From the NCBI GenBank assembly GCA_964016885.1, contig OZ024748.1, positions 20,398,001 to 20,462,000 on the forward strand: 64,000 bases of DNA, in the 5' to 3' direction. This DNA comes from Eledone cirrhosa. Its lineage: Eukaryota. Within the stretch, counting starts at the first letter, position 1; the number at the start of each line of letters is the position of its first letter. The translations under genes were made by a program, and so were the position numbers. The notes beneath the pieces were generated by a model. It had not been told where the DNA came from. It saw only the letters and a list, made by a program, of their open reading frames with translations, and did not search any database. Positions 16,489 through 60,495 of the stretch are shown here, one piece after another.

Positions 16489-16902
16489 AACCAAAGATTA
16501 GTATCGTTCGTTGATTACTCAACGAATACAGTTTTACAATAGATTAGAAGCACTCAACAGTCTAAGTTTTCCTGGAGTTTTTAATATTATTCAAAATGTT
16601 AACAAATGAAAAATCTTTGCATAATCAAAATATATACTTTATTATATATATTTCAAAGGTACTGTGTTGTTTTTTCAGTACGTCCTCATCAGACAAAATA
16701 TATGATTTGATATATGACATACCGCTACGGTCTTGATTATTCAATTCCAGTATTGGCAGTAGAAGTATGTCATATATCAGATCATATATTTTGTCTGATG
16801 AGGACGTACTGAAAAAACAACGCAGTACCTTTGAAATATATATAATAAAGTATATATTTTGATTATGCAAATATTTTTCATTTGTTAACATTTTGAATAA
16901 TA
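16489..16902. mobile_element. Fold-back Penelope-like terminus with two hammerheads
   Basis: Inverted arms about 16585-16722 / 16765-16902 within TA-rich repeats. Confidence 0.75.
16784..16855 (+). ncRNA. Minimal type I hammerhead ribozyme (mirror copy 16632-16703, minus strand)
   Basis: AUAUAUUUUGU CUGAUGA g gacGUACUG..CAGUAC cuuu GAAAU AUAU AUA AUAAAGUAUAU. Confidence 0.78.
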
Positions 16903-16924
16903 TACATATATATACATATATATA

Positions 16925-17672
16925 TCATCATCATCATCATCGTTTAACGTCCATCTTCCACGCCTGCATGGGTTTGGACGGGAGTTTTCCCACTTGAGGC
17001 AAGATTTGTTGTCCTGCTCGTATAGGACTGTCTGGCGGGTTTTCTATGGCTGGATGCCCTTCCTAATACCAACCATGTTTACAGTGTGGAACTGGTAGGT
17101 TTCGCTTTGTACTTAGGCAAGGCGAGTCTTCTGTATGACTGTGTAGTGCCAAAGATCTCGGTCCAGTGACATTGTCTTGGAGAGGTGTAAGTGTGTGAGG
17201 TCGGAATTTATCAAGTCGTCCCAGGTTTTTCTGGGTCTGCCTACTCCGTGGCTACCGTCTATTTTTATCGCCCTGCACTTTTTTATACAGCTGTCGTCTT
17301 TCATGCGCATCACGTGACCGTACTAACGTAGTCTTCTCTCGAGTAAACAGCATCTGATCCCTCTTATTCCTAATTTCTCCCTTAGTTCGTTTATGCTTTG
17401 CCGTTCGCGTATATTACTATGACACATCCAGCGGAGCATACAAGCTTCGTTCCTCTCCAGTCTGCGTATATCCTCTGCACACAATGCCCAGGTCTCACTG
17501 CCATGTAACATTGCTGTTCGTATGCAGGCATCATACAGCCTGCCTTTCATTTTTAGAGAGAACCCTTTAGCGGCCAATAGTGGTATAAGCTCTCTGAACT
17601 TTTTCCATCCCGTTCTGACTCTAGCTACTGTACTTTCAGAGCACCCTCCCCCACTGCTGATTTTGTCACCCA
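16925..17672 (-). mobile_element. 5'-truncated RTE LINE copy
   Basis: ORFs 17113-17313 and 17323-17679 near-identical to 14044-14622, with a nonsense codon and a 3' UTR deletion. Confidence 0.92.
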
Positions 17673-18194
17673 ATGACAACCTAACCTGTGGCTGTATGTA
17701 ATATATATTATATATATTATATATATATTACATACAGCCACAGTTAGGTTGCCATCATTTGCAATGTTGATCTTGATGTTAATAACGATAAGATGACAAT
17801 GACGATAGTGACATAAAAAAGGGAGGAGGAGGTGAGGGTGAGAGAGATGGTGGGTTGGAGTGCATTGTCATGAACATTTTGTCTCATTCTGTTTCGTTTT
17901 GTTATATTTTTATTTTCTAAATTCCATTTTAAACTGTGCTGTCAACAAAATTCCTTTACTTGCCCTGACCACTATTATTTCTATTGTGTCTCAGTTATAC
18001 TTTCCACGATTAGGTGAAATATGATCTCACCTGTAAACTGATAATTTACCTTCAAAACATTTCAGTCCACCTGGATTGTGGTTAAGGTTGTTCCTTTTCC
18101 TGCTTAAAGCTGTTTCACTTGATAAACCACATTTCCAAATACTAATATGATATTACTTTCAACTTACATACCATCATCATCATCATCATTATCA

Positions 18195-18347
18195 TGCTTT
18201 GCAGCATAGAGTTACGGCCCTTTGCAGTCTGTGTCCAAATCCTGCTGAGGTTAACTTTATTTTATCGATCCTGTAAGGATGAAAGGCAAAGTACCAGTAA
18301 TGCACTGGGATAATTGCTGGCCTTTTGCCAAAAGTAGAAACAATTAT
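18195..18347 (+). mobile_element. SINE family A with inverted core
   Basis: Consensus match; 18254-18292 inverted. Confidence 0.8.
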
Positions 18348-18411
18348 CAGCAGTTTACAGGTTTTGGGGGATTTTTCATGCTAGAATGGTTTGATGGCTC
18401 TGTTGATGATC

Positions 18412-19135
18412 AGAGCATCTTGTCTCACATCTGTTGCTGAGCACAGCATCATGTCCTACCCCCTTGACCCTCATCTGTTGCTAAATAGAATATCTTGTCT
18501 CAGATCTGTTGCTAAATAGAGTATCTTGTCTCACATCTGTTGTTAAATAGAATATCTTGTCTCACACCTGTTGCTAAATAGAGTATCTTGTCTCACATCT
18601 GTTGTTAAATAGAGTATCTTGTCTCACACCTGTTGCTAAATAGAGTATCTTGTCTCACATCTGTTGTTAAATAGAATATCTTGTCTCACATCTGTTGCTA
18701 AATAGAGTATCTTGTCTCACATCTGTTGTTAAATAGAATATCTTGTCTCACATCTGTTGTTAAATAGAATATCTTGTCTCACACCTGTTGCTAAATAGAG
18801 TATCTTGTCTCACATCTGTTGTTAAATAGAATATCTTGTCTCACATCTGTTGTTAAATAGAATATCTTGTCTCACACCTGTTGCTAAATAGAGTATCTTG
18901 TCTCACATCTGTTGTTAAATAGAATATCTTGTCTCACATCTGTTGTTAAATAGAATATCTTGTCTCACACCTGTTGCTAAATAGAGTATCTTGTCTCCCA
19001 TCTGTTGCTAAATAGAGTACCTTGTTGCATCTGTTGTTAAGCAGAGTATCTTGTCTTACCGCATCTGTTGTTAAGCAGAGTATCTTGTCTTACCACATCT
19101 GTTGCTAAGTAGAGCATCTTGTCTCACATCTGTTG
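18412..19135. repeat. 31-bp minisatellite
   Basis: Unit atctgttgttaaatagaatatcttgtctcac. Confidence 0.95.
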
Positions 19136-19162
19136 ATGTTGCCCTTCTGTCATCTGATGCAT

Positions 19163-19193
<31 letters not shown>

Positions 19194-19417
19194 ACAGAGA
19201 AAACAGGCTGACTTTGTCGTTTTCTATGTCACCCCCTCCCCTCACCCACATACTTTTAAAAGCCAGAAGTCCTTTCTACACCATAGACAGGGTGTCTTTC
19301 ATCATGACACCACCGCTGGAGAGGTGGGGGTTGTTTGTATCACCACTGGAGAGGTGGGAGATTCAGCATGACACAACGTGACAAGGCTGGCCCACTGAAT
19401 TACAGGTACAGTCCATA

Positions 19418-19828
19418 GGTGGATTGGCAGTATCGGTAGAGGGTCGGACGCCATGCTTTCCAGCATAGTTACGTCCCTTTACGATCTGAGTTCAAATCCC
19501 GCCGAGGTTGACTTTGCCTTTCATCCTTACGGGGTTGATAAAATAAAGTACCAGTAATGCACTGGGTAATTGCTGGCCTTGTGCCTAAAGTAGAAACAAT
19601 TATTGTGCAAGTGGCTGAGTATTCCACAGACACGTGTACTCTAATATAGTTCTCAGCGTGATTCAACATAACAGTGTGTGACAAACTTGGCCCTTTGAAT
19701 AACATTACAACACAGTTTTACCAGCTGAGTGGACTGGAGCAACAGGAAATAAAGTGTCTTGCTTAAAGATGCCAAGAATCAAACTCACAACCTTACATTC
19801 ATGAGCCAAACACCCTAATCACTGAGCC
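19418..19828. mobile_element. SINE family A (19418-19603, plus) abutting an older CORE-type SINE (19607-19828, minus)
   Basis: Consensus match; reverse CORE-like ctgagtggactggagcaac..aaagtgtcttgct. Confidence 0.75.
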
Positions 19829-20327
19829 CTTGAAATCATGTGTGTGTAAATTACACAAAATAAAATACCTTATTATTAATACATTAGCTATCACGATATA
19901 ACCATATAAATATAACTAACAACAGCTGTCACTTGCAAGCTAATATGACTTGGTGGTATGTACAATGCTTTTGTTCAGGGTTTTAGGTGCCTATTTAATC
20001 ACAAGCAGACATTGACATTCTCCAGGCCCTCTCTCCTTTGATCCAAGGAAACATCCAGGATCTGGCAGCTGGAAAGATGGAAGTCTGTACCAAGCACTAG
20101 AGTGATATTTTCTTTGTTGGTCTTAAAAATGTGAAAGATAAAGTGGACCTTAGTGGGATTTGAACTCAGAACACAGAGACCCAGAACAAATATTCCACAC
20201 TGAAATGACTGCCACATTCAGTACCTTCTATCACAGTAATATACTATGTAACTTAACAGAATAATAGTTTACTACTTGTAGTTTTATTTTTAAAAACACA
20301 CACACATAAATATATATATATATATTT

Positions 20328-20720
20328 ATACGATATTAAACAAATGGAAACTATATTTATAAAACCATATTTATTTCATTATATATATTTCTGGGATATC
20401 ATATTAAAAATATGGTATGCCTTCCTCAGACAAAATACAATATATAAGCCGTTTTATAAATAAATTTGACATACCTTAAAATAATGCAACTTCCATTTAA
20501 AAAGAAAACGGCTTATATATTGTATTTTGTCTGAGGAAGGCATACCATATTTTTAATATGATATCCCAGAAATATATATAATGAAATAAATATGGTTTTA
20601 TAAATATAGTTTCCATTTGTTTAATATCGTAAACCTACTCCAAAATCTGTTGAGTGCTTTTATATCAGTTATAAAATATTTACTCGTTGTAACCCAACAA
20701 TTTTAAATAAAACTTTTGCA
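20328..20720 (+). mobile_element. Fold-back Penelope-like terminus with two hammerheads
   Basis: Inverted arms about 20330-20456 / 20506-20632, then terminus ...aaacttttgca(TA)n. Confidence 0.75.
20523..20588 (+). ncRNA. Minimal type I hammerhead ribozyme (mirror copy 20372-20437, minus strand)
   Basis: UAUUUUGU CUGAGGA [imperfect stem II] GAAAU AUAU AUA AUGAAAUA. Confidence 0.65.
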
Positions 20721-21179
20721 TATATATATTTATATATATATAAACATTTTTGTCTCTCTGTCTGGCTGTCTTTTCCTTATGCATTTCCAAACTGCTTGAC
20801 CAAATCAAATCAAATTTTACAAGTTAATAGTATTAGACCCCAGGTGCAACAACATATAATTTTTATTTTCATTTGGATTAAAACAATATAACACTATCTC
20901 CTATAGACTACTATAAACTATAATTAAACGGATATTTTATAACACGACGATGACGACATCACATTTTTTATGTGTCTGTGAGTGTGTGTGTGTATGTGTG
21001 TGCGTTTGATACATACATTACGCCTTAGTAAGTTACATACACACACATCTTCACGTAAATACTTAATCAGATACACAGAGAATTAAACATATGATTCAGA
21101 CGCTGGCTTGCACACACGCACACGCACACACACACATTTATATACAATTATCTATATATATATCTACATATAGTATAAA

Positions 21180-21797: not shown

Positions 21798-22146
21798 TAT
21801 ATATACAAATAGTGAAAACAATCAAATTAAACAAAAAACGGTTAATTCATATTAAAACTCATTATTTTATGATCGTTTCTTTGCTTCACGACATCTACAT
21901 ACGGATTACATTGAGTTCTTCATACAGCTTAGACCCTACCATTAATTGGTGAATTTATCTGTGTGTATATATATATATATATATATATCAACCAAGGTAT
22001 ACACATGCACACACAATTGTAATAAATCCCACATACATACATAAAAGCATATATACACACATATACACACAACAACAGACATACATAAGGACACTGCAAT
22101 AGACAAAGACATATTTATACACTGTACCATTCACACAGCAAGACAC

Positions 22147-22886
22147 ACTCTCTCTCCCCCCTTACTTCAGTGGTCAGTGGTACACAATCTCTCTCTCCCT
22201 CTCTCTCTCCTTACTTCAGTGGTCAGTGGTACACAATCTCTCTCTCTCTCTCTCTCCCTCCTTACTTCAGTGGTCAGTGGTACACAATCTCTCTCTCCCT
22301 CTCTCTCTCTCCTTACTTCAGTGGTCAGTGGTACACAATCTCTCTCTCTCCCTCCTTACTTCAGTGGTCAGTGGTACACAATCTCTCTCTCTCTCCCTCC
22401 TTACTTCAGTGGTCAGTGGTACACAATCTCTCTCTCTCTCTCTCTCCCTCCTTACTTCAGTGGTCAGTGGTACACAATCTCCCTCTCTCTCTCTCCTTAC
22501 TTCAGTGGTCAGTGGTACACAATCTCTCTCTCTCTCCCTCTCTCTCCTTACTGCAGTGGTCAGTGGTACACAATCTCTCTCTCTCTCTCTCCTTACTGCA
22601 GTGGTCAGTGGTACACAATCTCTCTCTCTCTCCCTCCTTACTTCAGTGGTCAGTGGTACACAATCTCTCTCTCTCTCCTTACTTCAGTGGTCAGTGGTAC
22701 ACAATCTCCCTCTCTCTCTCTCCTTACTTCAGTGGTCAGTGGTACACAATCTCTCTCTCTCTCTCTCTCTCTCCTTACTTCAGTGGTCAGTGGTACACAA
22801 TCTCTCTCTCTCTCTCTCCTTACTGCAGTGGTCAGTGGTACACAATCTCTCTCTCTCTCCCTCCTTACTTCAGTGGTCAGTGGTAC

Positions 22887-22930
<44 letters not shown>

Positions 22931-23190
22931 CTTACTTCAGTGGTCAGTGGTACACAATCTCTCTCTCTCTCTCTCCCTCCTTACTTCAGTGGTCAGTGGT
23001 ACACAATCTCTCTCTCTCTCTTTCTCTCCTTACTTCAGTGGTCAGTGGTACACAATCTCTCTCTCTCTCTCTCTTTCTCCCCTTACTTCAGTGGTCAGTG
23101 GTACACAATCTCTCTCTCTCTCCTTACTTCAGTGGTCAGTGGTACACAATCTCTCTCTCTCTCTCTCCTTACTTCAGTGGTCAGTGGTAC

Positions 23191-23222
<32 letters not shown>

Positions 23223-23790
23223 CTTACTTCAGTGGTCAGTGGTACACAATCTCTCTCTCTCTCTCTCTCTCTCCTTACTTCAGTGGTCAGTGGTACACAA
23301 TCACTCTCTCTCTCTCTCCCTCCTTACTTCAGTGGTCAGTGGTACACAATCTCTCTCTCTCTCTCTCCCTCCTTACTTCAGTGGTCAGTGGTACACAATC
23401 TCTCTCTCTCTCTCCCTCTCTCTCCCTCCTTACTTCAGTGGTCAGTGGTACACAATCTCTCTCTCTCTCTCTCTCTCCCTCCTTACTTCAGTGGTCAGTG
23501 GTACACAATCTCTCTCTCTCTCTCTCTCCCTCCTTACTTCAGTGGTCAGTGGTACACAATTTCTCTCTCTCTCTCCTTACTTCAGTGGTCAGTGGTACAC
23601 AATCTCTCTCTCTCTCCCTCCTTACTTCAGTGGTCAGTGGTACACAATCTCTCTCACTCTCTCTCTCTCCTTACTTCAGTGGTCAGTGGTACACAATCTC
23701 TCTCTCTCTCTCTCTCTCCTTACTTCAGTGGTCAGTGGTACACAATCTCTCTCTCTCTCTCTCTCTCCTTACTTCAGTGGTCAGTGGTAC

Positions 23791-23822
<32 letters not shown>

Positions 23823-25092
23823 CTTACTTCAGTGGTCAGTGGTACACAATCTCTCTCTCTCTCTCTCCTTACTTCAGTGGTCAGTGGTACACAATCTCTC
23901 TCTCTCTCTCTCTCCTTACTTCAGTGGTCAGTGGTACACAATCTCTCTCTCTCTCTCTCTCCTTACTTCAGTGGTCAGTGGTACACAATCACTCTCTCTC
24001 TCTCTCTCTCCCTCCTTACTTCAGTGGTCAGTGGTACACAATCTCTCTCTCTCTCTCTCTCCCTCCTTACTTCAGTGGTCAGTGGTACACAATCTCTCTC
24101 TCTCTCTCTCTCTCTCCCTCCTTACTTCAGTGGTCAGTGGTACACAATCTCTCTCTCTCTCTCTCTCCCTCCTTACTTCAGTGGTCAGTGGTACACAATC
24201 TCTCTCTCTCTCTCTCCCTCCTTACTTCAGTGGTCAGTGGTACACAATTTCTCTCTCTCTCTCTCTCCTTACTTCAGTGGTCAGTGGTACATAATCTCTC
24301 TCTCTCTCTCTCCTTACTTCAGTGGTCAGTGGTACACAATCTCTCTCTCTCTCTCTCTCCTTACTTCAGTGGTCAGTGGTACACAATCTCTCTCACTCTC
24401 TCTCTCTCCTTACTTCAGTGGTCAGTGGTACACAATCTCTCTCTCTCTCTCTCTCTCTCCTTACTTCAGTGGTCAGTGGTACACAATCTCTCTCTCTCTC
24501 TCTCTATCTCTATCTCTCTCTCTCTCCTTACTTCAGTGGTCAGTGGTACACAATCTCTCTCTCTCTCTCTCTCTCTCTCCTTACTTCAGTGGTCAGTGGT
24601 ACACAATCTCTCTCTCTCTCTCTCCTTACTTCAGTGGTCAGTGGTACACAATCTCTCTCTCTCTCTCTCTCCTTACTTCAGTGGTCAGTGGTACACAATC
24701 TCTCTCTCTCTCTCTCCTTACTTCAGTGGTCAGTGGTACACAATCTCTCTCTCTCTCTCTCTCTCTCTCCTTACTTCAGTGGTCAGTGGTACACAATCTC
24801 TCTCTCTCTCTCTCTCCTTACTTCAGTGGTCAGTGGTACACAATCTCTCTCTCTCTCTCTCTCCTTACTTCAGTGGTCAGTGGTACACAATCTCTCTCAC
24901 TCTCTCTCTCTCTCTCCTTACTGCAGTGGTCAGTGGTACACAATCTCTCTCTCTCTCTCTCTCTCCTTACTTCAGTGGTCAGTGGTACACAATCTCTCTC
25001 TCTCTCTCTCTCTCCTTACTTCAGTGGTCAGTGGTACACAATCTCTCTCTCTCTCCCTCTCTCTCTCTCCTTACTTCAGTGGTCAGTGGTAC

Positions 25093-25132
<40 letters not shown>

Positions 25133-25204
25133 TACTGCAGTGGTCAGTGGTACACAATCTCTCTCTCTCTCTCTCTCTCTCCTTACTTCAGTGGTCACTG
25201 GTAC

Positions 25205-25256
<52 letters not shown>

Positions 25257-25450
25257 TACTGCAGTGGTCAGTGGTACACAATCTCTCTCTCTCTCTCTCC
25301 TTACTTCAGTGGTCAGTGGTACACAATCTCTCTCTCTCTCCTTACTTCAGTGGTCAGTGGTACACAATCTCTCTCTCTCCCTCTCCTTACTTCAGTGGTC
25401 AGTGGTACACAATCTCTCTCTCTCTCTCTCCCTCCTTACTTCAATGGTCA
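22147..25450. repeat. Compound minisatellite: 29-bp constant core plus variable (CT)n
   Basis: ccttacttcagtggtcagtggtacacaat separated by (CT)n of varying length, about 65-70 units. Confidence 0.97.
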
Positions 25451-25864
25451 GTTATTTTTAAAAGGTAGTTTATCATTTTTTGTTAAATGCGTCACCTACT
25501 ATTGAACATTGTGGACTCATTTAATGAAACACTAGAAAGATAAGGGTTGGGTACCTGTGTGTGTTAGGGGTTGTAAAGTGGTAGTGTGAGTGCAACGATA
25601 AAATGAACCAAACCAACACTGTATAGTGGTAGTGCTGATACCATGATAAAATGATCTTAGTACAAACTATAAATTAGTTGGTGTTTGGAAGGGCATCCAG
25701 CTGTAGAAAGCAAGCCCAAAATGGAAGGTATGAGCTTGGCATGGTCACCTACCTGATCTAGCATCAGAACATGACACAACATTCGTTTTAACACACACGA
25801 GCATAGAAAATAGACATAAAATGATTGGGATAATGAAATAAGTTATATATATATATATATATAT

Positions 25865-26202
25865 GGAGGCACATGGCTTAGTGGTTAGAGCATTGGCCTT
25901 GCAATCGAAAGGTTGTGAGTTCAATTCTCAGACTGGGTGATGTGTTGTTTCCTTAAGCAAGACACTTTATTTCACATTGCTCCAGTTTACTCAGCTGTAG
26001 AAATGAGATGATAGGGACTGGGGTCCCTATCATTCCACTGCAAAGTGGTCGTGGAGGTGCCACAGAAAAAAGCACCCAGCACTCACTGTAAATGAGGTTG
26101 GTGTTAGGAAGGGCATCCAGCTGTAGAAATCAAGCCAGAATCAGTTCCCGTCCCACCCTTGCAAGCAGGGAAAAAGCGGACGGAAAATGAAATGATGATG
26201 AT
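25865..26202 (+). mobile_element. Full-length SINE family B
   Basis: Same consensus as 11657-11993; (TA)n on both sides. Confidence 0.88.
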
Positions 26203-26583: not shown

Positions 26584-26839
26584 ATATATATATATATATA
26601 TATATGTATAACTTATTTCATATATATATATATATCATTATGATTATTATACACCCACACACAGACATACACCCACACACAGACATACACAGACATACAG
26701 CCATACACACATACACAGTAGGGTACAGGATATAAGAATTCGATGAATTTCCTTTTCAGATATTTTATTTACATATACTTCAATGTTGGGCTTTAATAAG
26801 CACTTTCTCTCTCTCTGTCACACCCAAATACATACACAC

Positions 26840-28200
26840 ACATATGTGTGTGTGTATGTACGTTTGTGTGCATTAGAGACACACGTGTGTGTGTGTGTGT
26901 GTACGTTTGTGTGCATGAGAGACAGCCACATGTGTGTGTGTGTGTGTATGTACGTTTGTGTGCATGAGAGACAGACACGTGTGTGTGTGTATGTACGTTT
27001 GTGTGCATGAGACAGACACATATGTGTGTGTGTGTGTGTGTGTACGTTTGTGTGCGTGAGAGATACGCACATATGTGTGTGTGTGTGTACGTTTGTGTGC
27101 ATGAGAGACACACACGTGTGTGTGTGTACGTTTGTGTGCGTGAGAGATACACACATATGTGTGTGTGTGTGTGTGTGTACGTTTGTGTGCATGAGAGACA
27201 GACACATGTGTGTGTGTGTGTGTACGTTTGTGTGCATGAGAGAAAGACACATGTGTGTGTGTGTACGTTTGTGTGCATGAGAGACACACACATATGTGTG
27301 TGTGTGTGTGTACGTTTGTGTGCATGAGAGACAGACACGTGTGTGTGTGTGTACGTTTGTGTGCATGAGAGACAGACACATATGTGTGTGTGTGTGTACG
27401 TTTGTGTGCATGAGAGACACACACATATGTATGTGTGTGTGTGTACGTTTGTGTGCATGAGAGACAGACACATGTGTGTGTGTGTGTACGTTTGTGTGCA
27501 TGAGAGACACACACATATGTGTGTGTGTGTGTGTGTGTGTGTACGTTTGTGTGCATGAGAGAGACACACACGTGTGTGTATGTACGTTTGTGTGCATGAG
27601 AGACACACACACACGTGTGTGTATGTACGTTTGTGTGCATGAGAGACACACACATGTGTGTGTGTGTACGTTTGTGTGCGTGAGAGATACACACATATGT
27701 GTGTGTGTGTACGTTTGTGTGCATGAGAGACAGACACATGTGTGTGTACGTTTGTGTGCATGAGAGACAGACACATGTGTGTGTGTGTGTGTACGTTTGT
27801 GTGCATGAGAGACAGACACATATGTGTATGTGTGTGTACGTTTGTGTGCATGAGAGACAGACACATATGTGTGTGTGTGTGTGTGTACGTTTGTGTGCAT
27901 GAGAGAGAGACATATGTGTGTGTGTGTACGTTTGTGTGCATGAGAGACACACACATGTGTGTGTATGTACGTTTGTGTGCATGAGAGACACACACATATG
28001 TGTGTGTGTGTGTGTACGTTTGTGTGCATGAGAGACACACACATGTGTGTGTGTGTACGTTTGTGTGCATGAGAGACAGACACGTGTGTGTGTGTACTTT
28101 TGTGTGCACGAGAGACACGTGTGTGTGTGTGTGTACGTTTGTGTGCATGAGAGTGACACATATGTGTGTGCGTGTGTACGTTTGTGTGCATGAGACAGAC
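26840..28200. repeat. Compound minisatellite gtacgtttgtgtgcatgagagac plus (CA)/(GT)n
   Basis: About 30 units with variable dinucleotide parts. Confidence 0.95.
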
Positions 28201-28237
28201 AAAAAGAGAAAGACATGTATTTATATATCTGTATTAA

Positions 28238-28419
28238 ATAATTGTTTCTACTTTTGGCACAAGGCCAGCAATTACCCCAGTGCATTACTGGTACTTTATT
28301 TTATCAACCCTGTAAGGATGAAAGGCAAAGTTAACCTCGGTGGGATTTGAACTCAGATCGTAAAGGGCCGTAACTCTATGCTGCAAAGCATGGCGTCCGA
28401 CCCTCTACGACACTGCCAA
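28238..28419 (-). mobile_element. SINE family A
   Basis: Consensus match. Confidence 0.85.
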
Positions 28420-31191: not shown

Positions 31192-31703
31192 ATCATCATC
31201 TTTTAACGTCTATCTTCCACGCTAGCATGGGTTAGATGGGAATTGTCTCACTTGAGGCAAGATTGGTTGGGTGACCGAGTCTCGCTCATATAGGACTGTA
31301 TCTGGCAGGTTTTCTATGGATGGATGCGCTTCCTAACACCAACCACATTTACAATATATATATTGGAGGCACATGGCTTAGTGGTTAGAGCATTGGCCTT
31401 GCAATCGAAAGGTTGTGAGTTCAATTCTCAGACTGGGTGATGTGTTGTTTCCTTGAGCAAGACACTTTATTTCACATTGCTACAGTTTACTCAGCTGTAG
31501 AAATGAGGTGATAGGGACTGGGGTCCATATCATACCACTGCAAAGTGGTCGTGGAGGTGCCACGGCAAAAAAGCACCCAGCACTCACTGTAAATGAGGTT
31601 GGTGTTAGGAAGGGCATCCAGGTGTAGAAATCAAGCCAGCATCAGTTCCCATCCCACCCTTGCAAGCAGGGAAAAAGCGGATGTAAAATGAAATGATGAT
31701 GAT
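31192..31703. mobile_element. RTE tail fragment (31192-31353, minus) and SINE family B (31365-31703, plus)
   Basis: Consensus matches. Confidence 0.82.
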
Positions 31704-32158: not shown

Positions 32159-33139
32159 TAGGAGGTGAGTTTTATTGTAGTACAATAAAGCAATGCAGAT
32201 ATCGGATAAGAAGCACTCTACAGTTTGTGGGACTGGAGTATGCATAATATAAGATCAAAAGATGGTTAAAGGAGTTCAATATATTTTATTATGCGCATTT
32301 CAAAAACAAACATCATCAAACAATAATATTTGTGTTTTCATCAGATAAAACAGGAGAACATGATATGAAGGCTAAAAAAACACTTGTTGATAGTGCAGTT
32401 TTAAATCAACATATGAAAAGTGGTTTTAGATTGATGTGTGATATTGGGAAAAATATTTTATTTAGAGAGGGGGGGAGAGAAAAGGATGAAAAGGGAAGGA
32501 GATGAGAGGGAGAGATGGGTGATAGAGAGAAAGAGATAGTTTTTATAACTGAGAGGAGATATATTTTATATAGAGGGGTTGAAAACCGTTGGAAGATACT
32601 GTATAAATTAAAAATTTTGAAAATTAACGAAGGGAGGATATGTGCGAGGAAAAAATATATTATATTTAGGGAGGGGGGGGGGTGGAAAGGATGAAAAAAA
32701 GGGGAGGAGATGAGAGTGAAGGTGGAAAGGGAGAGATGGGTGATAGAGAGAAAGAGATAGTTTTTATAACTGAGAAAAAGATATAATGTTTTAATATAGA
32801 GAGGTTGGGAACCCCTCTATATAAAATATATCTCTCAGTTATAAAAACTATCTCTTTCTCTCTATCACCCATCTCTCCCTCTCATCTCCTTCCCTTTTCA
32901 TCCTTTTCTCTCCCCCCCTCTCTAAATAAAATATTTTTCCCAATATCACACATCAATCTAAAACCACTTTTCATATGTTGATTTAAAACTGCACTATCAA
33001 CAAGTGTTTTTTTAGCCTTCATATCATGTTCTGTTTTATCTGATGAAAACACAAATATTATTGTTTGATGATGTTTGTTTTTGAAATGCGCATAATAAAA
33101 TATATTGAACTCCTTTAACCATCTTTTGATCTTATATTA
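32159..33139. mobile_element. Large fold-back Penelope-like terminus with two hammerheads
   Basis: About 330-bp near-identical inverted arms 32246-32580 / 32811-33139 between (TA)n tracts. Confidence 0.78.
33034..33100 (+). ncRNA. Minimal type I hammerhead ribozyme (mirror copy 32284-32350, minus strand)
   Basis: UUUUAU CUGAUGA [long stem II aaacacaaauauuauu/gaugauguuuguuuuu] GAAAU GCGC AUA AUAAAA. Confidence 0.85.
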
Positions 33140-33208
33140 TATATATATATATATATACATACACATATAACCATATATATATACAAATACATACATACCC
33201 ATATAACC

Positions 33209-33326: not shown

Positions 33327-33586
33327 CGGCGATGAATTAGTTTTGCGAGGTGTTGGAAGGACACATCCAACACTTCATCAACCGCATGCAGTTCTCTGGC
33401 TACAACCAAAGAGACAGAGTCAGAGTATACGAAGGAGCCATGGAAAAGTATAAGACCCTCATAGAACTGGACATGAAAGGAATTTGCCCATTATACAGGA
33501 GCAAATCATGAAATAGCTTAGATAGGGCTAGACATAAGATAGGGAAGGCCACATCATGGTACGACAACCAGAGATATCAGAGTGTC

Positions 33587-34138
33587 ATGTTTGTGGACGC
33601 CACCCCTGGAGGGAAATTAGCTAACCAGTGTAGAAAGGCCCTGAGAAAGACCCACTTAAAAATTAAGGTGGTAGAAAAGCCAGGAACCACCATAAAATCC
33701 CTGATCAGCAAAACCTACCCTTTTAAGAAAACCCACTGTACCAATAGGAAATGTATCATTTGTAAGGTGAACCCCCGGATAAACTGTAAAACTAGAAACG
33801 TAGTCTATAGCATAAGATGTACAGAGGGTACTTGCAGAAACATGACAACAACATACATAGGTGAGACAGCTCGTAGTATAAGTGAAAGGATAGACCAACA
33901 CTGGGGGGAACTAAAAGGACGAAAAAACGGGTCAGTACTATACGAACATGCTAGACAACATGACGGTAACATAGACAACATAGAAATTAGAATAATATCT
34001 AAACATAGGAATGACCCAGCAGATAGGCAAATCAGAGAGGCCAGTGAAATAGAAATTAGAAGACCAAAGCTAAACAGAAAGAATGAGTGGAACAACAACA
34101 ACACCCAAACAAACAACACTGACCTAAGAGAAGTATAA
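33587..34138 (+). CDS. GIY-YIG endonuclease domain of a Penelope-like element
   Basis: VVY...YIGET.R, catalytic R/H/E/N pattern, Cys-rich linker. Confidence 0.85.
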   Translation: MFVDATPGGKLANQCRKALRKTHLKIKVVEKPGTTIKSLISKTYPFKKTHCTNRKCIICKVNPRINCKTRNVVYSIRCTEGTCRNMTTTYIGETARSISERIDQHWGELKGRKNGSVLYEHARQHDGNIDNIEIRIISKHRNDPADRQIREASEIEIRRPKLNRKNEWNNNNTQTNNTDLREV

Positions 34139-34396
34139 ATAAGTAAATAAAATTAAATAAAATAAGATAAATAAATACATACACAAGCACATAAACACAC
34201 ACTAGTCACCCAGCAGACACAACACTATACACACTAGTCACACATCACACTATACACACACGCAAACGCATGCGCAAAGAAGACAAAATAAAATAAGATA
34301 AACAAACAAGCAAATAAATAAATAAATATATAGACAGACTGAACAAAAAAAAAAAATGGCGTAGACATACAACACAACAGGAGGAACAATTAATAT

Positions 34397-34440
34397 AACA
34401 CCACTGACGATGTTGCAGATGTGCAACGAAAGATTTATGT
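34397..34440 (+). ncRNA. Hammerhead-like motif in the Penelope 3' region (partly degenerate)
   Basis: CUGACGA u GUUGCA gaug UGCAAC GAAA GAUU UA; perfect stem II, weak stem I. Confidence 0.55.
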
Positions 34441-34761
34441 AAATTATGTAAACTATATATATGTGTTTGTGTCTATATTGTATCTGTATTATTTTTGACC
34501 GCCGGTCAGTCAATGGCAACATTGAGGACCGAGTAAGTTAGATCGCAGATATATATATATAAAAGACAGCGAGAAGCGAAAACCAACCAAACAGTGAGTG
34601 TGTTCTGTTATTAATTCTGGCAATATTACGCAAATATGACCCTCCCCAAATATAACAATATATATATATACATACACATATAACCATATATATACAAATA
34701 CATACATACACATATAACCATATATATACAAATACATACATACATACATACACATATAACC

Positions 34762-38501: not shown

Positions 38502-39038
38502 TCGTCCTTCCTCTACCCCTTATCTTTCTTTTTCTTTTATTATTGCGAACATTGTATAATCTAACAGAGAATGTTATATACAGTGAATGTAGGAGGAGAA
38601 CATAAGACTGAGATGACATCCTCGCCCCCCTCCTCTGCTAGTATACAGCTTGGTGAGAACAGAGGATACCTGATGACAACAAACATACATTCCTAGCACT
38701 CCTTACAGATACTTAATTCTTCAGATTCTTTAGTTATATATATAAACATATATATATATATATATACACATGTATACATACATATATACCTATATATATA
38801 TCTATATATATACATACATACATATATACCTATATATATATCTATATATATACATACATACATATATACCTATATATATATATATATATATACATACATA
38901 TATACCTATATATATATATATCTATATCTATATATATATATATATATATATACATACATATATACCTATATATATATATAGTGGCGATGAATTAATTCTG
39001 GCAATATTACACAAATATGACCCTCCCCAAGTATAACA

Positions 39039-39109
<71 letters not shown>

Positions 39110-39152
39110 CATATATACCTATATATATATATACATATATCTATATCTATAT

Positions 39153-39655
39153 AATTCACAAGGATCAAAGCTATGTTGAAAGCATTTATTCACTTACAAT
39201 TGTTTCATCCAAACCTAGGCTTGGAGTCTTCGGAGCAATTTTTAATGCTTGTACATATAATTGACCTCCTTTCCAATGCAAGATACAGATACATATATAT
39301 ATATATATTGATGTACAGTGGAGTGGCATATATTATACTGTACTATTTTTGTACAGCAATTCAAATTCAAAATCAAAATCAAAATCAAAATCAAAATTAA
39401 AATAAAAATAAAAATAAAATTTTAATTTTAATGTTAATTTTGAATTTGAATTGCTGTACAAAAATAGTATAGTATAATATATGCCACTCCACTGTACATC
39501 AATATATATATATATGTATCTGTATCTTGCGTTGGAAAGGAGGTCAATTATGTGTACAAACATTGAAAAATGCTCTGAAGACTCCAAGCCTAGGTTTGGA
39601 TGAAACAATTGTAAGTGAATAAATGCTTTCAACATAGCTTTGATCCTTGTGAATT
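39153..39655. mobile_element. Fold-back hammerhead-bearing element in (TA)n
   Basis: About 220-bp inverted arms around an A/T-rich spacer. Confidence 0.75.
39571..39617 (+). ncRNA. Minimal type I hammerhead ribozyme
   Basis: UGCU CUGAAGA c UCCAAGC cuag GUUUGGA u GAAAC AAUU GUA AGUG; the mirror arm reads CCGAAGA. Confidence 0.75.
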
Positions 39656-39700
39656 CTATATAGTTATATATAGATATATATATCTATATATCTATATATA

Positions 39701-40005: not shown

Positions 40006-40322
40006 TGGAGGCACATGGCTTAGTGGTTAGAGCATTGGACTTGCAATCGAAAGGTTGTGAGTTCAATTCTCAGACCGGGTGATGTGTTGTTTCCTTGAGC
40101 AAGACACTTTATTTCACATTGCTCCAGTTTACTCAGCTGTAGAAATGAGATGATAGAGACTGGGGTCCCTATCATTCCACTGCAAAGTGGTCGTGGAGGT
40201 GCCACTGCAAAAAAAGCACCCAGCACTCACTGTAAATGAGGTTGGTATTAGGAAGGGCATCCAGCTGTAGAATTCAAGCCAGAATCAGTTCCCGTCCCAC
40301 CCGTGCAAATGAAATGGAAATG
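40006..40322 (+). mobile_element. SINE family B
   Basis: Consensus match, in (TA)n. Confidence 0.87.
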
Positions 40323-40439
40323 ATATATATATCTATATATATATATCTATATCTATATATATATATATCTATCTATATATCTATATATATTTATATATAT
40401 ATATATATCTATATATCTATCTATATATATATATATATA

Positions 40440-41670
40440 TTGTCTAAGACTAAAGTTCTATTTTGTAGGAAGGAAAATAGGGTGCCGGTCCCATCCGGGA
40501 AATGGCCATGCTCAGTGTCTAGGAAAGGAGTAGGTAGAAACTCCATTTTATGTCCCAAATGCAAAGTATGGGTGCATAAAAGATGTAGTGGGATCACAGG
40601 TAAGCTAACTAAGAACATAGATTTTATATGTGGCCGGTGCTCTGGTGCAATAAGTAGCAGCAAGTGCCCACAAAATACTAGCTCATTCAATTGCACAGAT
40701 GGTTCTATAGAAATAGTGGACAGCTTCCGTTACCTGGGTGATAAAATCAGCAGTGGGGGAGGGTGCTCTGAAAGTACAGTAGCTAGAGTCAGAACTGGAT
40801 GGAAAAAATTCAGAGAGCTTATAACACTATTAGCCACTAAAGGGTTCTCCCAAAAAATGAAAGGCAGGCTGTATGATGCCTACATACGAACAGCAATGTT
40901 ACATGGCAGTGAGACCTGGGCATTGTGTGCAGAGGATATACGCAGACTGGAGAGGAACGAAGCTTGCATGCTCCGCTGGATGTGTAATAGTAATATACGT
41001 GAACGGCAAAGCATAAACGAACAAAGGGAAAAATTAGAAATAAGAGGGATCAGATGTTTACTCGAGAGAAGACTACGTTGGTATGGTCACGTGATGTGCA
41101 TGAAAGACGACAGCTGTATAAAAAAGTGCAGGGCAATAAAAATAGACAGTAGCCACAGAGTAGGCAGACCCAGAAAAACCTGGGATGACTTGATAAATTC
41201 CGACCTCACATACTTACACCTCTCCAAGACAATGTCACTGGACTGAGATCTTTGGCGCTACACAGTAATAGAGAAGACCCACCTTACCTAAGTACAAAGT
41301 GAAACCTACTACAGTCAGTGGGCACCTCTAAGAAAATACACCCCATCCCACTACCCCCACCCCACCTACACCACCCCTTTCAATGTAAAGTTATGTTGGT
41401 ACCACAACATCCAGCCCGACACAAATGAGGTCGTGTAGGTGTCACGACAAAAAAACACACAGTCCACGCTGTAATGTGGCCGTGTAGGCAACACGGTAAA
41501 AACCTCCCAGTCCCACACTGTAAATGTGGTTGGTGTTAGGAAGAGCATCCAGCTGTAGAAAACCCGCCAGACAGTCCTATGCGAGCAAGACAACCACTCT
41601 TGCCTCAAGTGGGAAAACCCCCGTCCAAACCCATGCAAGCGTGGAAGATGGACGTTAAACGATGGTGATG
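40440..41670 (+). mobile_element. Longest RTE LINE copy, with a Cys-rich (PHD-like) segment inside the RT C-terminal region
   Basis: SKTKVL..WPCSV..GVG.NSILCPKCKVWVHKRCSGI..FICGRC..FRYLG..HGSETW..RRLRWYGHV..GRPRKTW; (GAT) tail. Confidence 0.92.
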
Positions 41671-53736: not shown

Positions 53737-56700
53737 ATAATTGTTTCTACTTTAGGCACAAGGCCAGCAATTACCCAGTACATTACTGGTACTTTATTTT
53801 ATCGACCCCGTAAGGATGAAAGGCAAAATCAACCTCGGCGGGATTTGAGCTCAGATCATAAAGGGACGTAACTATGGCGTCCGACTCTCTACCGATACTG
53901 CCAATCCACATAATACCAGTTAAAAGCTAGGGTCAATTTAATCAACTACATCCTCACCCCAAAGTTTCTGGTCTTGTGTCAATGTATGAAACTATTATTA
54001 TTATTATCATTATGTCAGTGGATTGGCAGTATCGGTGGAGCATTGGACAACATGCTTAGTGGCATAGAGTTACGGCCCTTTGCATTCTGAGTTCAAATCA
54101 CGCCAAGGTTAAATTTGCCTTTCATCCTTATGGGGTTGATGAAATAAAACACCTTGGGTATGAGCAGTGTAGCTTTTGCTGATGTTTATATTGTATTGAT
54201 AGTACTTTTTGTAATGTGTTCAGTGTCTAGTAGTGCTATCTTTTGTATGCTGTATATATTCATAAATCCTGGGATTTTGGTTGCCATCATCATCATCAGC
54301 ACCATCATTATTATCATTATAATTATGATAGTGGATTGAGAATCATTTGAGTCACACACATTGCTTTGCTCTGAAGATTTTGTTTCAAAAGTTTTAAGGT
54401 CCCAGTAAATTATTTCCCCAATTGAGTTGCGGTTTCTTCAAAGCAGGCCTTTGATAAAAAGACATCTCAGCCATGAGTATGCCACCCTCTCAGTCTAGAG
54501 ACAGTAACGTTTGATTCCAAGGAGATTTCACGTCTATTATTACTAACAAGTAGAGGACAATGGATTAACAGTATCAGTAGAGCGCTTGACATGCTTTTAC
54601 ATTCAGAGTTCAAATCCTACTGAGGTTAGCTTTGCCTTTCATCCTTATGAGGGGGTCGATAAAATAAAGTACCAGTAACACACTGGGATAAATTTAATTG
54701 ACTTTCCCTTCGCCTGAAATTATTGGCCTTGTGTCTAAATCAGAAACTATTATTACTAACAAATGTGGTGGGTTGGCAGTATGGGCAAAGGGTTGGACAC
54801 CATCCTTACTAGCATAGAGTTATGGCCCTTTACGGTCTGATTTCAAATCCTGCCGAGGTTAACTTTGCCTTTCATCCTTACGGGGTCGATAAAATAAAGT
54901 ACCAGTAATGCACTGGGGTATTTGCTAGCCTTGTGTCAAAAGTAGAAACAATTATTACTAACAAGCCAAGGGCAGTGGATTAGTTTGTTGGATGAAAAAC
55001 ATTGCCATATTTCATTACAGCCCTTAACATTCTGGTTTTAAAATCTTACTGAGGTTAACTTTGCCGTTCATACTTCCAGGGTCGATAAAATAGAATACCA
55101 GTCAAATATTGAGGTTGATTCTATTAATTGTCCCCGTTTTCCTAGAAACTGATGGCCTTATACTTAAATAAGAAATTATTATTGCTAGCTAGTCAAGCAA
55201 TCTCACAGAACTGCTCTCATTGGTTCAGCATGTTTTGGTTCTTAGTTGAAGTCTATTCTATTCACTTCACTAAATTTATTTATATACCTACTTGAAAGAA
55301 AATGAATGTCACACCTTTTTCATTCAACAGGTAAAATATTTTACACTGAATGGTTTTTATTATTTACTCTTAGGTGCTTAAATAACAACAATAATAATAG
55401 TGGTTTCTAATTCAGGTAAAAGGCCAGCAAATGTTTGGGCGTCGTATGTTAAGTTGATTAAATTGACCCAGGTCATGACCGGTACTCTATTTTATCAACC
55501 CTGAATGAGTGAAAGGCACAGTTGATTTCAGTGGGATTTGAACTCAAAGCAAAAAGAACAGGAATGAATACTTCAAAGCATTTTATCTGAGGCTATAAGA
55601 AATCAGCCAATTCTCTGACCTAACAAGAACAGCAACAATAATAAATATTCCTAGGCACAAGGCTAGTTTGTGGGGAGCAGAAAGTTGATTAAATCAACCT
55701 CAGTACATTACTGGTACTTTATCAACCCCGGAAAGATGAAAGGCAAAGCTAACCATGGTGATATTTGAACTCAGAATGTAAAAGGACGTAACTATATGAT
55801 TCTAAGTATGTTGACTGATGCTCTACCAATTCTGCCAATCCCCCACACCAACAGCAACAATAATAATTGTTTCTACTTTTGGCACAAGGCCAGCAATTAC
55901 CCCAGTGTATTACTGGTAATTTATTTTATCGACCCCGTAAGGATGAACAGCAACAATAATAATAATGATAATTCAAATATGATTTAGGCATAAGGCCAAC
56001 AAGTCAACCATACTGACCCCCCAAGACTTTACTGGTATGTTATTTTATTGATCCCCGAAGGATAATAGGCAGAGTTGAACTTGGTGTTATTTGAACTCAG
56101 ATTGTAAAGAGCTAGAATAAATAGCATGAAGCATTTTGTCTGACAGTGGAGTATGCTAGGTTAATATTTCTTCCTAACCTTCACACATCCTCTACAGTTA
56201 ATGCTCATATATGAAAGTCTGTATGTTGTACATATTTGTAAGTCCTGCAGTTTTGGTCATGTATTGGTCAATTTCTATTTTCTTTATCATTCCCAGAACA
56301 CCTATTATTATACACATTGTTTCTGTTTCCATTGTTCACATTTAGGTTACTTCTACTTCTAGATCTTTATATTTAGATAATTTCTACATTTCTTTGAGAG
56401 ATATATTATTTGTTTCTACTTTAGGCACAAGGCCAGCAAATACCCAGTTCATTACTGGTACTTTATTTTATTGACCCCGTAAGGATGAAAGGCAAAGTCA
56501 ACCTCGGCGGGATTTGAACTCAGATCGTAAAGGGACGTAACTATGCTGGAAAGCATGGCGTCCGACCCTCTACCGATACTGCCAATCCACCGCTTTTGAG
56601 AGATATATTATTGTCAGTCAATTAGACTTCATCTATCTGTGTATGTGGATATTATTGATATATCCTATCATTATCCTCACGTATGTTGATGCCCTAAGGA

Positions 56701-57431
56701 CAGACACTGGTCTGTTGGAGATGCAGGACATGGCAGCGATGATGAGGGACAGAGACCGCTGGAGAGAACTCATCCATGGATCTCGGGAATTTTACCCGCC
56801 TTAGAATAGAATAGAATATCCTCACATTCTTATATTTTGACAGTAATTCTAGTGGAAATTATGTATTCTTTTATTTCTCGTTTTCTACTTGTGATACTAA
56901 AAGTAAATTCGTCAAAACACCTTGATAGATGTGATAGAAGCTACAGAATGTTGTGTTATATATCAATTAGTACATCAAACATACCTGTACTCAGAGAGGT
57001 TCCAGTTGTGACCACCCTGCCTTATTTTTACATGTACTATAACAGGAACTATATTATCCAAAGTGCCCTTTCCCTTCTTTTCAGACATATTGTATCTAGA
57101 ATATATTATCCAATAATTCTTTCCTCTTGTTCTTTTCTTTAAAGATAATAGGATGTGATTTGAAGAAGATTTAGCTGCTATATCTAGAAGGTAATACAAC
57201 CATGTAGAGGCCCTCTTGTTACTTCACATGTCTTGCATGGGGATATAGTGTATTTATAATTGTTTCTACTGGCATGAGGCCAGCAATTACCCCAGTGCAT
57301 TACTGGTACTTTATTTTATCGACCCCCGTAAGAATGAAAGGCAAAGTTAACAACCCACATTATAAAATAAAGTACCAGTAATTCACTGTGATAATTGCTG
57401 GTCTTGCTTGTATCAAAAGTAGAAACAATTA
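53737..57431. mobile_element. Dense cluster of about 11 SINE family A copies of varying age
   Basis: Both orientations; youngest at 56411-56593 (-) with 18-bp TSD tttgagagatatattatt. Confidence 0.85.
56681..56816 (+). mobile_element. Very short LINE (RTE-like) 3' end with (TAGAA)n tail
   Basis: YVDALRTDTGL...MRDRDRWRE frame; TSD tatcctcac at 56672-56680 and 56817-56825. Confidence 0.7.
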
Positions 57432-58665
57432 TAAATGCACCAAATCCTGCTGAGGTTAAGTATTCTAAAAAATAAGTTTGCTCAAACAGAAGGCAGATAC
57501 ATACAACAAAATCAATAATCATCAGCTCACATTGAATCAAGTGAGGCTTTACATGGTTTCTCAGTATGTTAGAAATAGCAGTCAAATCTTCATCAGACTG
57601 TACCCTGTCATTTAAAAGATAATATTGAGCAGGGAGCTTACTGGATAATTTAGTGCTGGCTTTAAAAAAAGATGATTGGAGGGACCTTGTGTAAGTTTGT
57701 TCAACAACAATGGAGCTAAGGCAATTATTTTACTTGCTAGAAATAGCAACCAATTTCTTTAAATCACATTCTACTGTCTTAAAAGAAAGATAAGTCCGAG
57801 ATACAAAAAAACTAGATGGTCATGGATGGAATGACTTCTATCATAAATCTATTCAACCAGCGCTGATCTGGATCTAAACAGGAAGCAAAATCTAAGTGAG
57901 TCAATGAAGGAGATTGTATGTAGTTGCTGACCTTGCTAGATATAACAACCAAATTCCCTCAAATCACAACTTTACTGTCTAGAAGGAAAGTACACAGCAG
58001 ACCATGCCATTCAACACAAAGCTGGGAAGATCAAATCTGGAATACCTTTGGTTATGGGCCACTCAATAAAGACAGAGATGCAGCTAAACAACTACAACAA
58101 CACATGTTAACAATGGAGCCTCTACATTGTCCTTCAGTTTGTTAAAAATAGCAGCCAAATTTCCTTAAAACGTTAGTCTATCATCTAAAACAAAAATCAC
58201 ATTGTCACTACACATCACACCTTACTGTCAAAGGAATTCCAGCTATGACAATTCAGAGTAGATTCACTACATTCTCCAGTAATGATGGTGCCCCAGTATG
58301 GCCACAGCCCAAGGGCTGGGGCAGGTAAAAAGAGTAATCAGGGCAAACTTGAGGCTAAACAACAACAACTGTTTAACTTCAAAGATGAACAAAGATAAAC
58401 TTTGTTATAAACTTGATAACTGACAATGAAGTTATGTTGAATACATATACATATTTTATTGTAGTTGTGAGGCTATATGAGTGACTCAAGGGCCAGGAGT
58501 TTTATGTATAAGGACACTAATCAAACTGTTTGATAAGTGTCCTTATACATGAAAACATTGAACCACAAGTTACTGGTATAGCTTCACAAGTTATAATAAA
58601 AAATATATAACTTTACTCAAACTTTACTTATATATTAAGTGTTGCCTCTCCTGATTGCTCAGCAA

Positions 58666-58696
<31 letters not shown>

Positions 58697-58816
58697 GAAT
58701 GTATGTATAGTATATTTGGCAATATACTATATGTTTAATTAAAAACATACAGTATATTGCCAAATACACTATACATACATTTATGTATACATCGCTAATT
58801 CAGAGCACCAATCCTA

Positions 58817-58848
<32 letters not shown>

Positions 58849-59195
58849 GAATGTATGTATGTATATATGTATATATATTTATATATATACATACACAAAC
58901 ATGACTCGGAAAACAAACGAACAGAATCATCTGCTTTTTCCCACCAATTTCATGTATAAAGGGGAATATCATTTGTATCTTTAACTTCAAGATTTTCTGA
59001 TGATCATCGTAGTACACAGGTGAAACACCTGGGTAATAGAGTAACAAGACTCATCACATAGACGTAACAAAGCCTTTATATATATGGGATCTTCTAAAAA
59101 CAGAAGATCCCGTAATATGGTGAAAGCACCAATTCTTTGCTTAAACTTTAATCTGTATTAATAATAAATATTTGCTCTACAAGTTTATATATACT

Positions 59196-59258
<63 letters not shown>

Positions 59259-59380
59259 GTAAACAGAAATAACAACACAATCGGTACAGTATATGGAAGA
59301 GATATATTAGGTTAACGCTTGATATAGCAGGAAGAGGGTCTTGATGTTTTGGACGCTAGTCACTCATATATATATATATA

Positions 59381-59590
59381 TAACGAAGGAAATGTGGTAA
59401 GGAACCAGGTGGACCATAACGCACCAAAGTACTCAATACTTGAGGTAGTAGAGTGGGTAATAGGGACCAGTAAGACCCCGACAGCTGAGCTCAAGCCGTT
59501 TCGACGGCTAATTCTGGACTCTAATATAGAGTCCAGAATTAGCCGTCGGAACGGCTTGAGCTCAGCTGTCGGGGTCTTACTGGTCCCTAT
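59381..59590 (-). mobile_element. Family B fold-back Penelope-like terminus
   Basis: Near-perfect palindrome 59460-59590 plus terminus at (TA)n. Confidence 0.65.
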
Positions 59591-59655
59591 ATATATATAT
59601 ATATATATATACAATACTTATCGAGCCCTCTTCAGATTTTGGTCTTCCTAATTAT

Positions 59656-59689
<34 letters not shown>

Positions 59690-59701
<12 letters not shown>

Positions 59702-59834
59702 AAATATATATGTATAAATATATATGTATATATGTATAAATATATATGTATAAATATATATGTATAAATATATATGTATAAATATATATGTATATATATA
59801 TATGTATATATATATATATGTATAAATATATATG

Positions 59835-59867
<33 letters not shown>

Positions 59868-59906
59868 GTATATATATATATATGAATGTATATATATATA
59901 TATATG

Positions 59907-59959
<53 letters not shown>

Positions 59960-60089
59960 CCAAAAGTTTAACAAGGTTGATTGATTAATCAATGAATAAA
60001 GTTTTACATAAAATATATTTGATCGATCAAATATATTTTATGTAAAACTTTATTCATTGATTAATCAATCAACCTTGTTAAACTTTTGG

Positions 60090-60136
<47 letters not shown>

Positions 60137-60173
60137 CATATATATATATATATACATTCATATATATATATAC

Positions 60174-60206
<33 letters not shown>

Positions 60207-60350
60207 CATATATATTTATACATATATATATACATATATATATATACATATATATTTATACATATATATTTATACATATATATTTATACATATATATTTA
60301 TACATATATACATATATATTTATACATATATATTTATACATATATATATT
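59690..60350. repeat. Spacer-less palindrome of about 650 bp
   Basis: Centre gatc|gatc at 60024/60025; the unique arms and the flanking compound microsatellite are mirrored. Confidence 0.85.
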
Positions 60351-60495
60351 TATTTCTGAAGACGGCATATATATGTGTTGGTATGTATATTTAATTTTGA
60401 TAGTTTGTATAATTTTGTATAATTTTGTACATAGATCTGTTGAATATGCATGCCAATTCTAACACATATATATCCTAGAAACGATCGTTAAATAA
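60350..60495 (+). ncRNA. Hammerhead ribozyme motif with extended stem II
   Basis: UUAUUU CUGAAGA [about 115 nt; auauauauguguugg pairs with cuaacacauauauau] GAAAC GAUC GUU AAAUAA. Confidence 0.68.

Follow-up and report, generated by a model that had tools for sequence, protein, structure and literature searches.

Hammerhead motifs with a short palindromic stem III of two pairs in the octopus Eledone cirrhosa, probable remnants of several families of Penelope-like elements

Penelope-like elements (PLEs) contain hammerhead motifs with the consensus GAAAN Palind NU H, in which the 15.2-16.2 pair and loop 3 form a recurring palindrome (PMC4209133, 2014); Aedes families with CGCG and GGCC loops are among the examples (PMC4209133, supplement Fig. 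S3). These minimal hammerheads showed only low activity, as dimers or trimers (PMC4209133), and PLE hammerheads are described as having a short palindromic loop and as likely to dimerize between tandem copies (PMC6765202). Some motifs form opposite-strand pairs 100-700 bp apart, and most are single motifs from truncated PLEs (PMC4209133). Inverted, 5′-truncated PLE copies have also been described, and in the Neptune clade a C-x(2-5)-CxxC linker has been tied to a bias for microsatellites (PMC8557442). We analyzed a 64,000-nucleotide stretch of the Eledone cirrhosa genome (the window; assembly GCA_964016885.1, contig OZ024748.1, positions 20,398,001 to 20,462,000), which holds 13 hammerhead motifs at 8 loci. 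We think it quite likely that these motifs belong to type I and carry a palindromic stem III of two pairs, that they come from the 3′ ends of several PLE families, and that the copies present here are inactive. The class has been known since 2014, and the window adds cephalopod members. The motifs, and the repeats that hold them, are as follows.

16785..16854, plus strand: hammerhead A+ (C3 16795, loop AUAU 16838-16841, H17 16844, triplet AUA)
16633..16702, minus strand: mirror copy A- (C3 16692; 98% identical to A+)
16584..16903, unstranded: inverted repeat holding A+ and A- (91% self-complementary; when folded, 93% paired with the core masked), likely two opposed truncated PLE 3′ ends
20521..20590, plus strand: hammerhead B+ (core CUGAGGA, loop AUAU 20574-20577, H17 20580)
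20370..20439, minus strand: mirror copy B- (C3 20429; identical to B+)
20329..20631, unstranded: inverted repeat holding B+ and B-
9955..10024, minus strand: hammerhead B2, a solo motif (10014) 82% identical to B, with loop AUGU that self-pairs through G·U only
33030..33104, plus strand: hammerhead C+ (loop GCGC 33088-33091, H17 33094; stem I near-identical to those of A, B, and B2)
32280..32354, minus strand: mirror copy C- (C3 32344; 99% identical to C+)
32244..33140, unstranded: inverted repeat that includes C+ and C-; its arms agree at 98% identity over 337 nt
39565..39623, plus strand: hammerhead D+ (loop AAUU 39607-39610, closing pair C-G, triplet GUA, weak stem I)
39185..39243, minus strand: mirror copy D- (C3 39233; U4-to-C core change)
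about 39140..39660, unstranded: inverted repeat holding D+ and D-, with TA microsatellite flanks
60346..60499, plus strand: hammerhead E, solo (loop GAUC 60483-60486, triplet GUU, 115-nt stem II region), set within a TA run that belongs to an unrelated inverted repeat with its center at 60024
34394..34447, plus strand: hammerhead core F (34404; perfect 6-bp stem II, one unpaired U, G10.1-C11.1)
63859..63999, unstranded: two degenerate hammerheads in inverted orientation at the window edge, G+ and G- (C3 63933 and 63925)

With the PLE hammerheads of Aedes aegypti, Drosophila willistoni, and Saccoglossus (PMC4209133), these motifs have in common the type I arrangement, the CUGANGA and GAAA boxes, and a 2-bp palindromic stem III, as well as a long stem II, U-rich or AU-rich flanks, family-specific loops, opposite-strand pairs, and truncated singles. 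They differ in that A-E and G lack the consensus junction; the supplement searched contains no octopus example. Judged by its title and by citing reviews, a second close relative is the group of dimer-forming hammerheads with a diminished stem III (Lunse, Weinberg and Breaker 2017, RNA Biol 14:1499), with which the motifs share a short palindromic stem III, a likely association with PLEs, and putative cleavage as dimers.

A preliminary description of the window had reported the five motifs A-E, and a check against the sequence agreed with it on coordinates, loops, closing pairs, and cleavage triplets; all five lie on the plus strand. The insert between GAAA and UH is U-AUAU-A at sites A (16838) and B (20574), U-GCGC-A at C (33088), C-AAUU-G at D (39607), and C-GAUC-G at E (60483). 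The triplets are AUA in A, B, and C, GUA in D, and GUU in E. At all five sites the CUGANGA, GAAA, and UH boxes are exact and stand in type I order, and both stem II and stem I are present; stem I of D consists of four pairs, two of them G·U. The triplet had been said to switch together with the closing pair. The change from AUA to GUA or GUU is indeed present, but it provides no second, independent signal: since N16.2 opens the triplet and is at the same time the 3′ partner in the closing pair, the step from AUA to GUA adds no separate evidence. Motifs absent from the earlier list are the four minus-strand mirror copies, B2 (loop AUGU), and types F and G.

To judge the palindromes against the surrounding DNA, we scanned both strands of the window for exact CUGANGA boxes joined to GAAA through a stem II, without regard to the loop sequence. 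Ten of the 36 exact boxes were joined in this way, and nine of these ten cores were followed by a 6-nt insert, UH, and a stem I. Eight of the nine inserts are perfect Watson-Crick palindromes and the ninth, in B2, self-pairs via G·U, so the claim that the loop varies yet stays palindromic held in a search blind to it. Local dinucleotide shuffles gave at most one palindromic site, and the observed counts were reached in none of two sets of 200 (0/200 + 0/200). Among background GAAA-N6-UH sites outside the cores, 6 of 145 six-mers are palindromic, one of them the mirror copy of D with its mutated core. Counting the tetraloop only, the background fraction rises to 40/145 (28%), chiefly AAUU and AUAU; among sites with a Watson-Crick closing pair it is 6/31. 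A and B are 63% identical, and B and B2 82%. Because A and B have AUAU in common by descent, we count four independent palindromes rather than five, for which P is ~0.006 by the tetraloop alone, ~0.001 given the closing pair (hand arithmetic, (6/31)^4), and 3e-6 by the six-mer. In this TA-rich DNA, AUAU or AAUU alone is weak evidence; the set as a whole is not chance.

A covariation alignment was built from A, B, B2, C, and D, with E omitted since its long stem II does not align. Pairing was present in 94% of 85 cells, and 9 of 18 pairs had changed on both sides; none of 500 shuffles scored as high. The five sequences share ancestry and also supplied the structure, and stem II of D is misaligned, so we take this as support and not as a formal test. 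Stems I, II, and III are all present around the core in these five, with a weak stem I in D. The proposal of selection on structure is thus supported. This, together with an unstable stem III in the monomer, is already published for PLE hammerheads (PMC4209133, PMC6765202). An Rfam scan of the window returned no hammerhead at the gathering score, nor any among the matches listed (150 of 363 weak ones). With a covariance model from the same five sequences, the matches below E 1e-6 were the nine A-D copies and nothing else, and no new copy came up; among all 28 matches, the 3′ half of E reached 15.7 bits, and F and G did not appear. Weak candidates with one mismatch (e.g., 12898 on the minus strand, 15574, 44641, 54371, and 61453) were dropped, having no credible stem I or III. 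The minus-strand segment 21755-21880 is a decayed relative of the 3′ part of E (75% over 136 nt) that keeps GAAA and the GAUC loop; its closing pair is broken, and an intact core box upstream is absent.

Two motif types depart from the others. Core F, in the 3′ non-coding part of a PLE remnant described below, has a 4-nt insert, GAUU, and a stem I of just 2 bp. In G the insert is 14 nt long and near-palindromic and makes a long stem III capped by a CUAG loop; stem II has U·U at its base, the predicted stem III pair probability is at most 0.19, and the G+ and G- cores lie 7 nt apart. The long stem III of G breaks the uniform picture, though G is degenerate.

The stem II junction also varies. 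In the published form one unpaired base follows A9 and G10.1-C11.1 comes directly before GAAA, a trait of the >80% consensus, with A-U and U-A cases in Fig. S3 (PMC4209133). In the window only F has this form. The bases flanking the core are G·U in A, A·A in B, A-U in B2 and C, C·U in D, C·A in E, and U·U in G. The fourth base after A9 is C in all seven of these types (e.g., 16805, 20541, 33050, 39585, and 60366), where it faces a C or U mismatch in five while its neighbors covary; C is also common at the matching position of the published alignment (PMC4209133). As the mirror copies agree with each other, the variant likely predates insertion. The conserved C may be a contact site or the junction a variant form; this pattern in four lineages was noticed post hoc and is a lead only.

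The genomic setting resembles that of truncated PLEs. Four of the five named motifs (A-D) have an opposite-strand mirror copy within a 300-900 nt inverted repeat, the arms of which end ~45-60 nt beyond the cleavage site; E and B2 are solos without one. A (TA)3 run lies within 75 nt downstream of 9 of the 13 motifs, at 8 of 8 loci, compared with 23% of random positions. Nearest neighbors on the same strand are 1.4 to 24.7 kb apart, and C, D, and E have no same-strand match in the window. A and B, with the same loop and compatible stem I, are spaced 3.7 kb apart on both strands (16795 to 20531 on plus, 16692 to 20429 on minus); no PLE coding remnant was found between them.

One locus carries PLE coding sequence.

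33341..34138, plus strand: 5′-truncated PLE reading-frame remnant, the C-terminal part, covering a C-x4-C-x2-C linker and an endonuclease of the GIY-YIG type that carries CCHH residues

The whole remnant spans 33341-34609 (plus strand) and takes in a hammerhead core of its own, F, which follows the endonuclease part after ~270 nt. The frame has one in-frame stop near 33509, and the reverse transcriptase (RT) core itself is truncated away. An alignment of 13 sequences contains invariant Y, G, E, R, C, and H columns. Atlas neighbors of the remnant score 0.97, with GIY-YIG on 13-18% of their members. In homologs over 590 amino acids, the C-x(2-5)-CxxC linker occurs in 14 of 14, as well as in the remnant; 11 of these 14 have a YVDD-type RT motif. 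By the linker criterion of PMC8557442, the remnant appears Neptune-like. With Neptune-clade PLEs (PMC8557442) the window has in common a GIY-YIG domain with CCHH, a zinc-finger-like linker, a hammerhead close to the 3′ end, truncated copies in inverted orientation, and microsatellites as targets; it differs in that coding sequence is confined to 33341-34609, and the likeness is one of features. The remnant was inserted, with a 4-nt duplication, into a short repeat of which 38981-39050 holds an intact copy. We considered and rejected a link between C and this adjacent remnant: since the remnant sits in that short repeat and carries a core of its own, F, it is not the parent of C.

How such hammerheads would work is suggested by folding. 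Energies come from a nearest-neighbor model that ignores core contacts, Mg2+, and proteins. Stem III of the monomer is predicted to be unstable, with a pair probability of at most 0.04 in 6 of 6 motifs. A matched partner is predicted to restore stem III, and the resulting double hammerhead to lie 11-20 kcal/mol below two monomeric hammerhead folds, and only +6.8 to -7.1 kcal/mol from the monomer ensembles. The apparent Kd in trans is predicted at 1e-5 M for C and at 0.07 M or weaker for the other five of six motifs. Because free dimers are predicted to be this weak, pairing would need tethering or a protein. In unconstrained two-strand folding, only two of six homodimers, and no pair with different loops, formed an in-register stem III. 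Mismatched loops carry a predicted penalty of 4.4-30.7 kcal/mol (9.8 and 15.6 for C with the AUAU group, 4.4 for B2 with C), while A, B, and B2 are predicted to cross-pair at no cost (0 to -1.5 kcal/mol); stem I is cross-compatible among A, B, B2, and C. In all four inverted repeats that were folded, the antisense arm was predicted to pair with the entire core. The statement that such hammerheads cleave efficiently as dimers went too far, given the low dimer and trimer activity in PMC4209133 and the requirement for a protein in PMC11167929.

We favor, as the origin of these motifs, PLE 3′ ends that would act as double hammerheads in an intact element. In an active parent PLE, as published PLE biology suggests, the left and right pseudo-long terminal repeats (pseudo-LTRs) would each bear the same hammerhead, and a single transcript with both copies in tandem would form a double hammerhead by pairing of their palindromes. 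Any palindrome should serve, so families could drift from one palindrome to another, and loop matching would reflect common descent and not a selected code. Cleavage would probably require the element's protein. Read-through RNA over an inverted pair would, as folding predicts, have its core buried in a long hairpin, and the A-E copies in the window are most likely inactive remnants.

Several observations weigh against this account. The named motifs deviate from the published G10.1-C11.1 consensus. What can be said of cleavage by the A-E copies is a prediction from sequence and folds, and the energy model is as simple as described above. Pfam recognized no GIY-YIG or RT domain in the PLE remnant or in 10 homologs, and the PDB match of the remnant to an intron endonuclease is weak (E 0.18). 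A tblastn search of the window with 151 homologs matched only 33341-34081, which leaves A-E with no physically linked PLE frame. C, ~200 nt upstream of the remnant, was inserted separately. When A-E were aligned locally with the 3′ region of the remnant, with no shuffle control, the scores were low only.

One alternative, which we consider unlikely, is that the hammerheads work as protein-assisted monomers and that the palindrome is only one route to a stem III that is short and able to close, or else a relic. For an Anolis PLE hammerhead, cleavage depends on the protein of the element, and insertion in vitro does not need the ribozyme (PMC11167929); many invertebrate type I hammerheads cleave as monomers (PMC7761336, PMC7229834), and G has a long stem III. 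However, the closing pair alone cannot explain palindromic loops in four of four lineages against the background of 6/31, and stem III of the monomer is predicted to be open.

It is rather improbable that the short elements are non-autonomous, non-LTR retrozymes or repeats resembling short interspersed nuclear elements (SINEs) instead of truncated PLEs. In its favor, A-E lack an attached reading frame, and a preprint of 2026 traces animal retrozymes to PLE pseudo-LTRs (10.64898/2026.07.22.740005). The non-LTR retrozyme hammerheads of axolotl and newt (PMC7229834) also have a palindromic tetraloop and depend on dimers (here a prediction), and helix II of one of them, HHR_Amex2, begins with a U·U mismatch, as stem II of G does (PMC7229834). 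Yet retrozymes consist of 150-450 nt units repeated head to tail and make canonical loop contacts (PMC7229834), and no such head-to-tail arrangement was found in the window: the pairs are inverted and same-strand copies are never less than 1.3 kb apart. The axolotl and newt elements combine head-to-tail copies, loop 1-loop 2 contacts, and circular RNAs (PMC7229834), whereas those in the window are dispersed inverted pairs or solos.

The preliminary description had further proposed that each family dimerizes only with its own loop type, so that the loop would act as a family-specific recognition code. In that case PLE transcripts would meet in trans, and different palindromes would be favored against cross-family cleavage. 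Given the cross-compatible stem I, it would chiefly be the loop that tells C from the AUAU group, and the failure of every different-loop pair to form an in-register stem III in free folding fits such a role. The same predictions make the code leaky: A and B, only 63% identical, share a loop and would cross freely, the Kd in trans would be 1e-5 M or far weaker, and just two of six homodimers fold in register when unconstrained. By the topology of the double hammerhead, stem I would be exchanged as well, and it already sets D and E apart. In cis a code would be unnecessary, since tandem copies match by descent, and four palindromes cannot tell selection for difference from drift. Loop selectivity is likely a predicted by-product, leaky and probably not needed as a code, and we regard a selected code as very unlikely. 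A fuller version seems just as doubtful, in which a cephalopod variant of the PLE hammerhead (an extra base on each side of the junction, two pairs, and the conserved C) and a loop switch among A, B, and C via the G·U-pairing AUGU, with stem I fixed, would have led to a selected self-versus-other code. We found no statement of a family recognition code in the literature searched, which largely excluded subscription papers and is weak evidence of novelty.

An origin of the palindromes as a mere side effect of AT-rich DNA with TA microsatellites, as the 40 palindromic tetraloops among 145 (mostly AAUU and AUAU) might suggest, is largely refuted and hardly credible, since GCGC and GAUC are rare in the background and six-mer palindromes number 6/145 there against 8/9 at the cores, a level reached in 0 of 400 shuffles.

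The window contains other repeats. Further short, perfect or near-perfect inverted repeats lie in TA runs at 59684-60353, 59457-59590, and 58700-58779 and contain no hammerhead; they may be differently truncated PLE ends, or other elements. Four near-identical tRNA-like heads occur at 25872-25935, 31372-31435, and 40016-40073 on the plus strand and 63593-63656 on the minus strand. They score 30-35 bits with Rfam, correspond to no ARAGORN gene, and are likely a tRNA-derived SINE family. Related 3′ fragments of the long interspersed nuclear element (LINE) type lie at 14014-14640, 17095-17727, and 40236-41309, with 89-93% mutual DNA identity where compared. One frame of these fragments has a PHD-finger match; among named protein matches to a LINE fragment, Octopus bimaculoides has the top identity (69% over 42% of the query), and oyster proteins reach 42-44%. 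Two long minisatellite arrays, at 22045-25505 and 26793-28300, contain spurious open frames of up to 1138 codons.

Motifs A, B, B2, and C form a natural test set: they have a common stem I and carry AUAU, AUGU, or GCGC loops, which isolates the role of the loop in the choice of partner. If it were true that loop identity keeps families apart, this would amount to RNA-level self-recognition among transposons, and such a recognition code would bear on what PLE hammerheads do in vivo.

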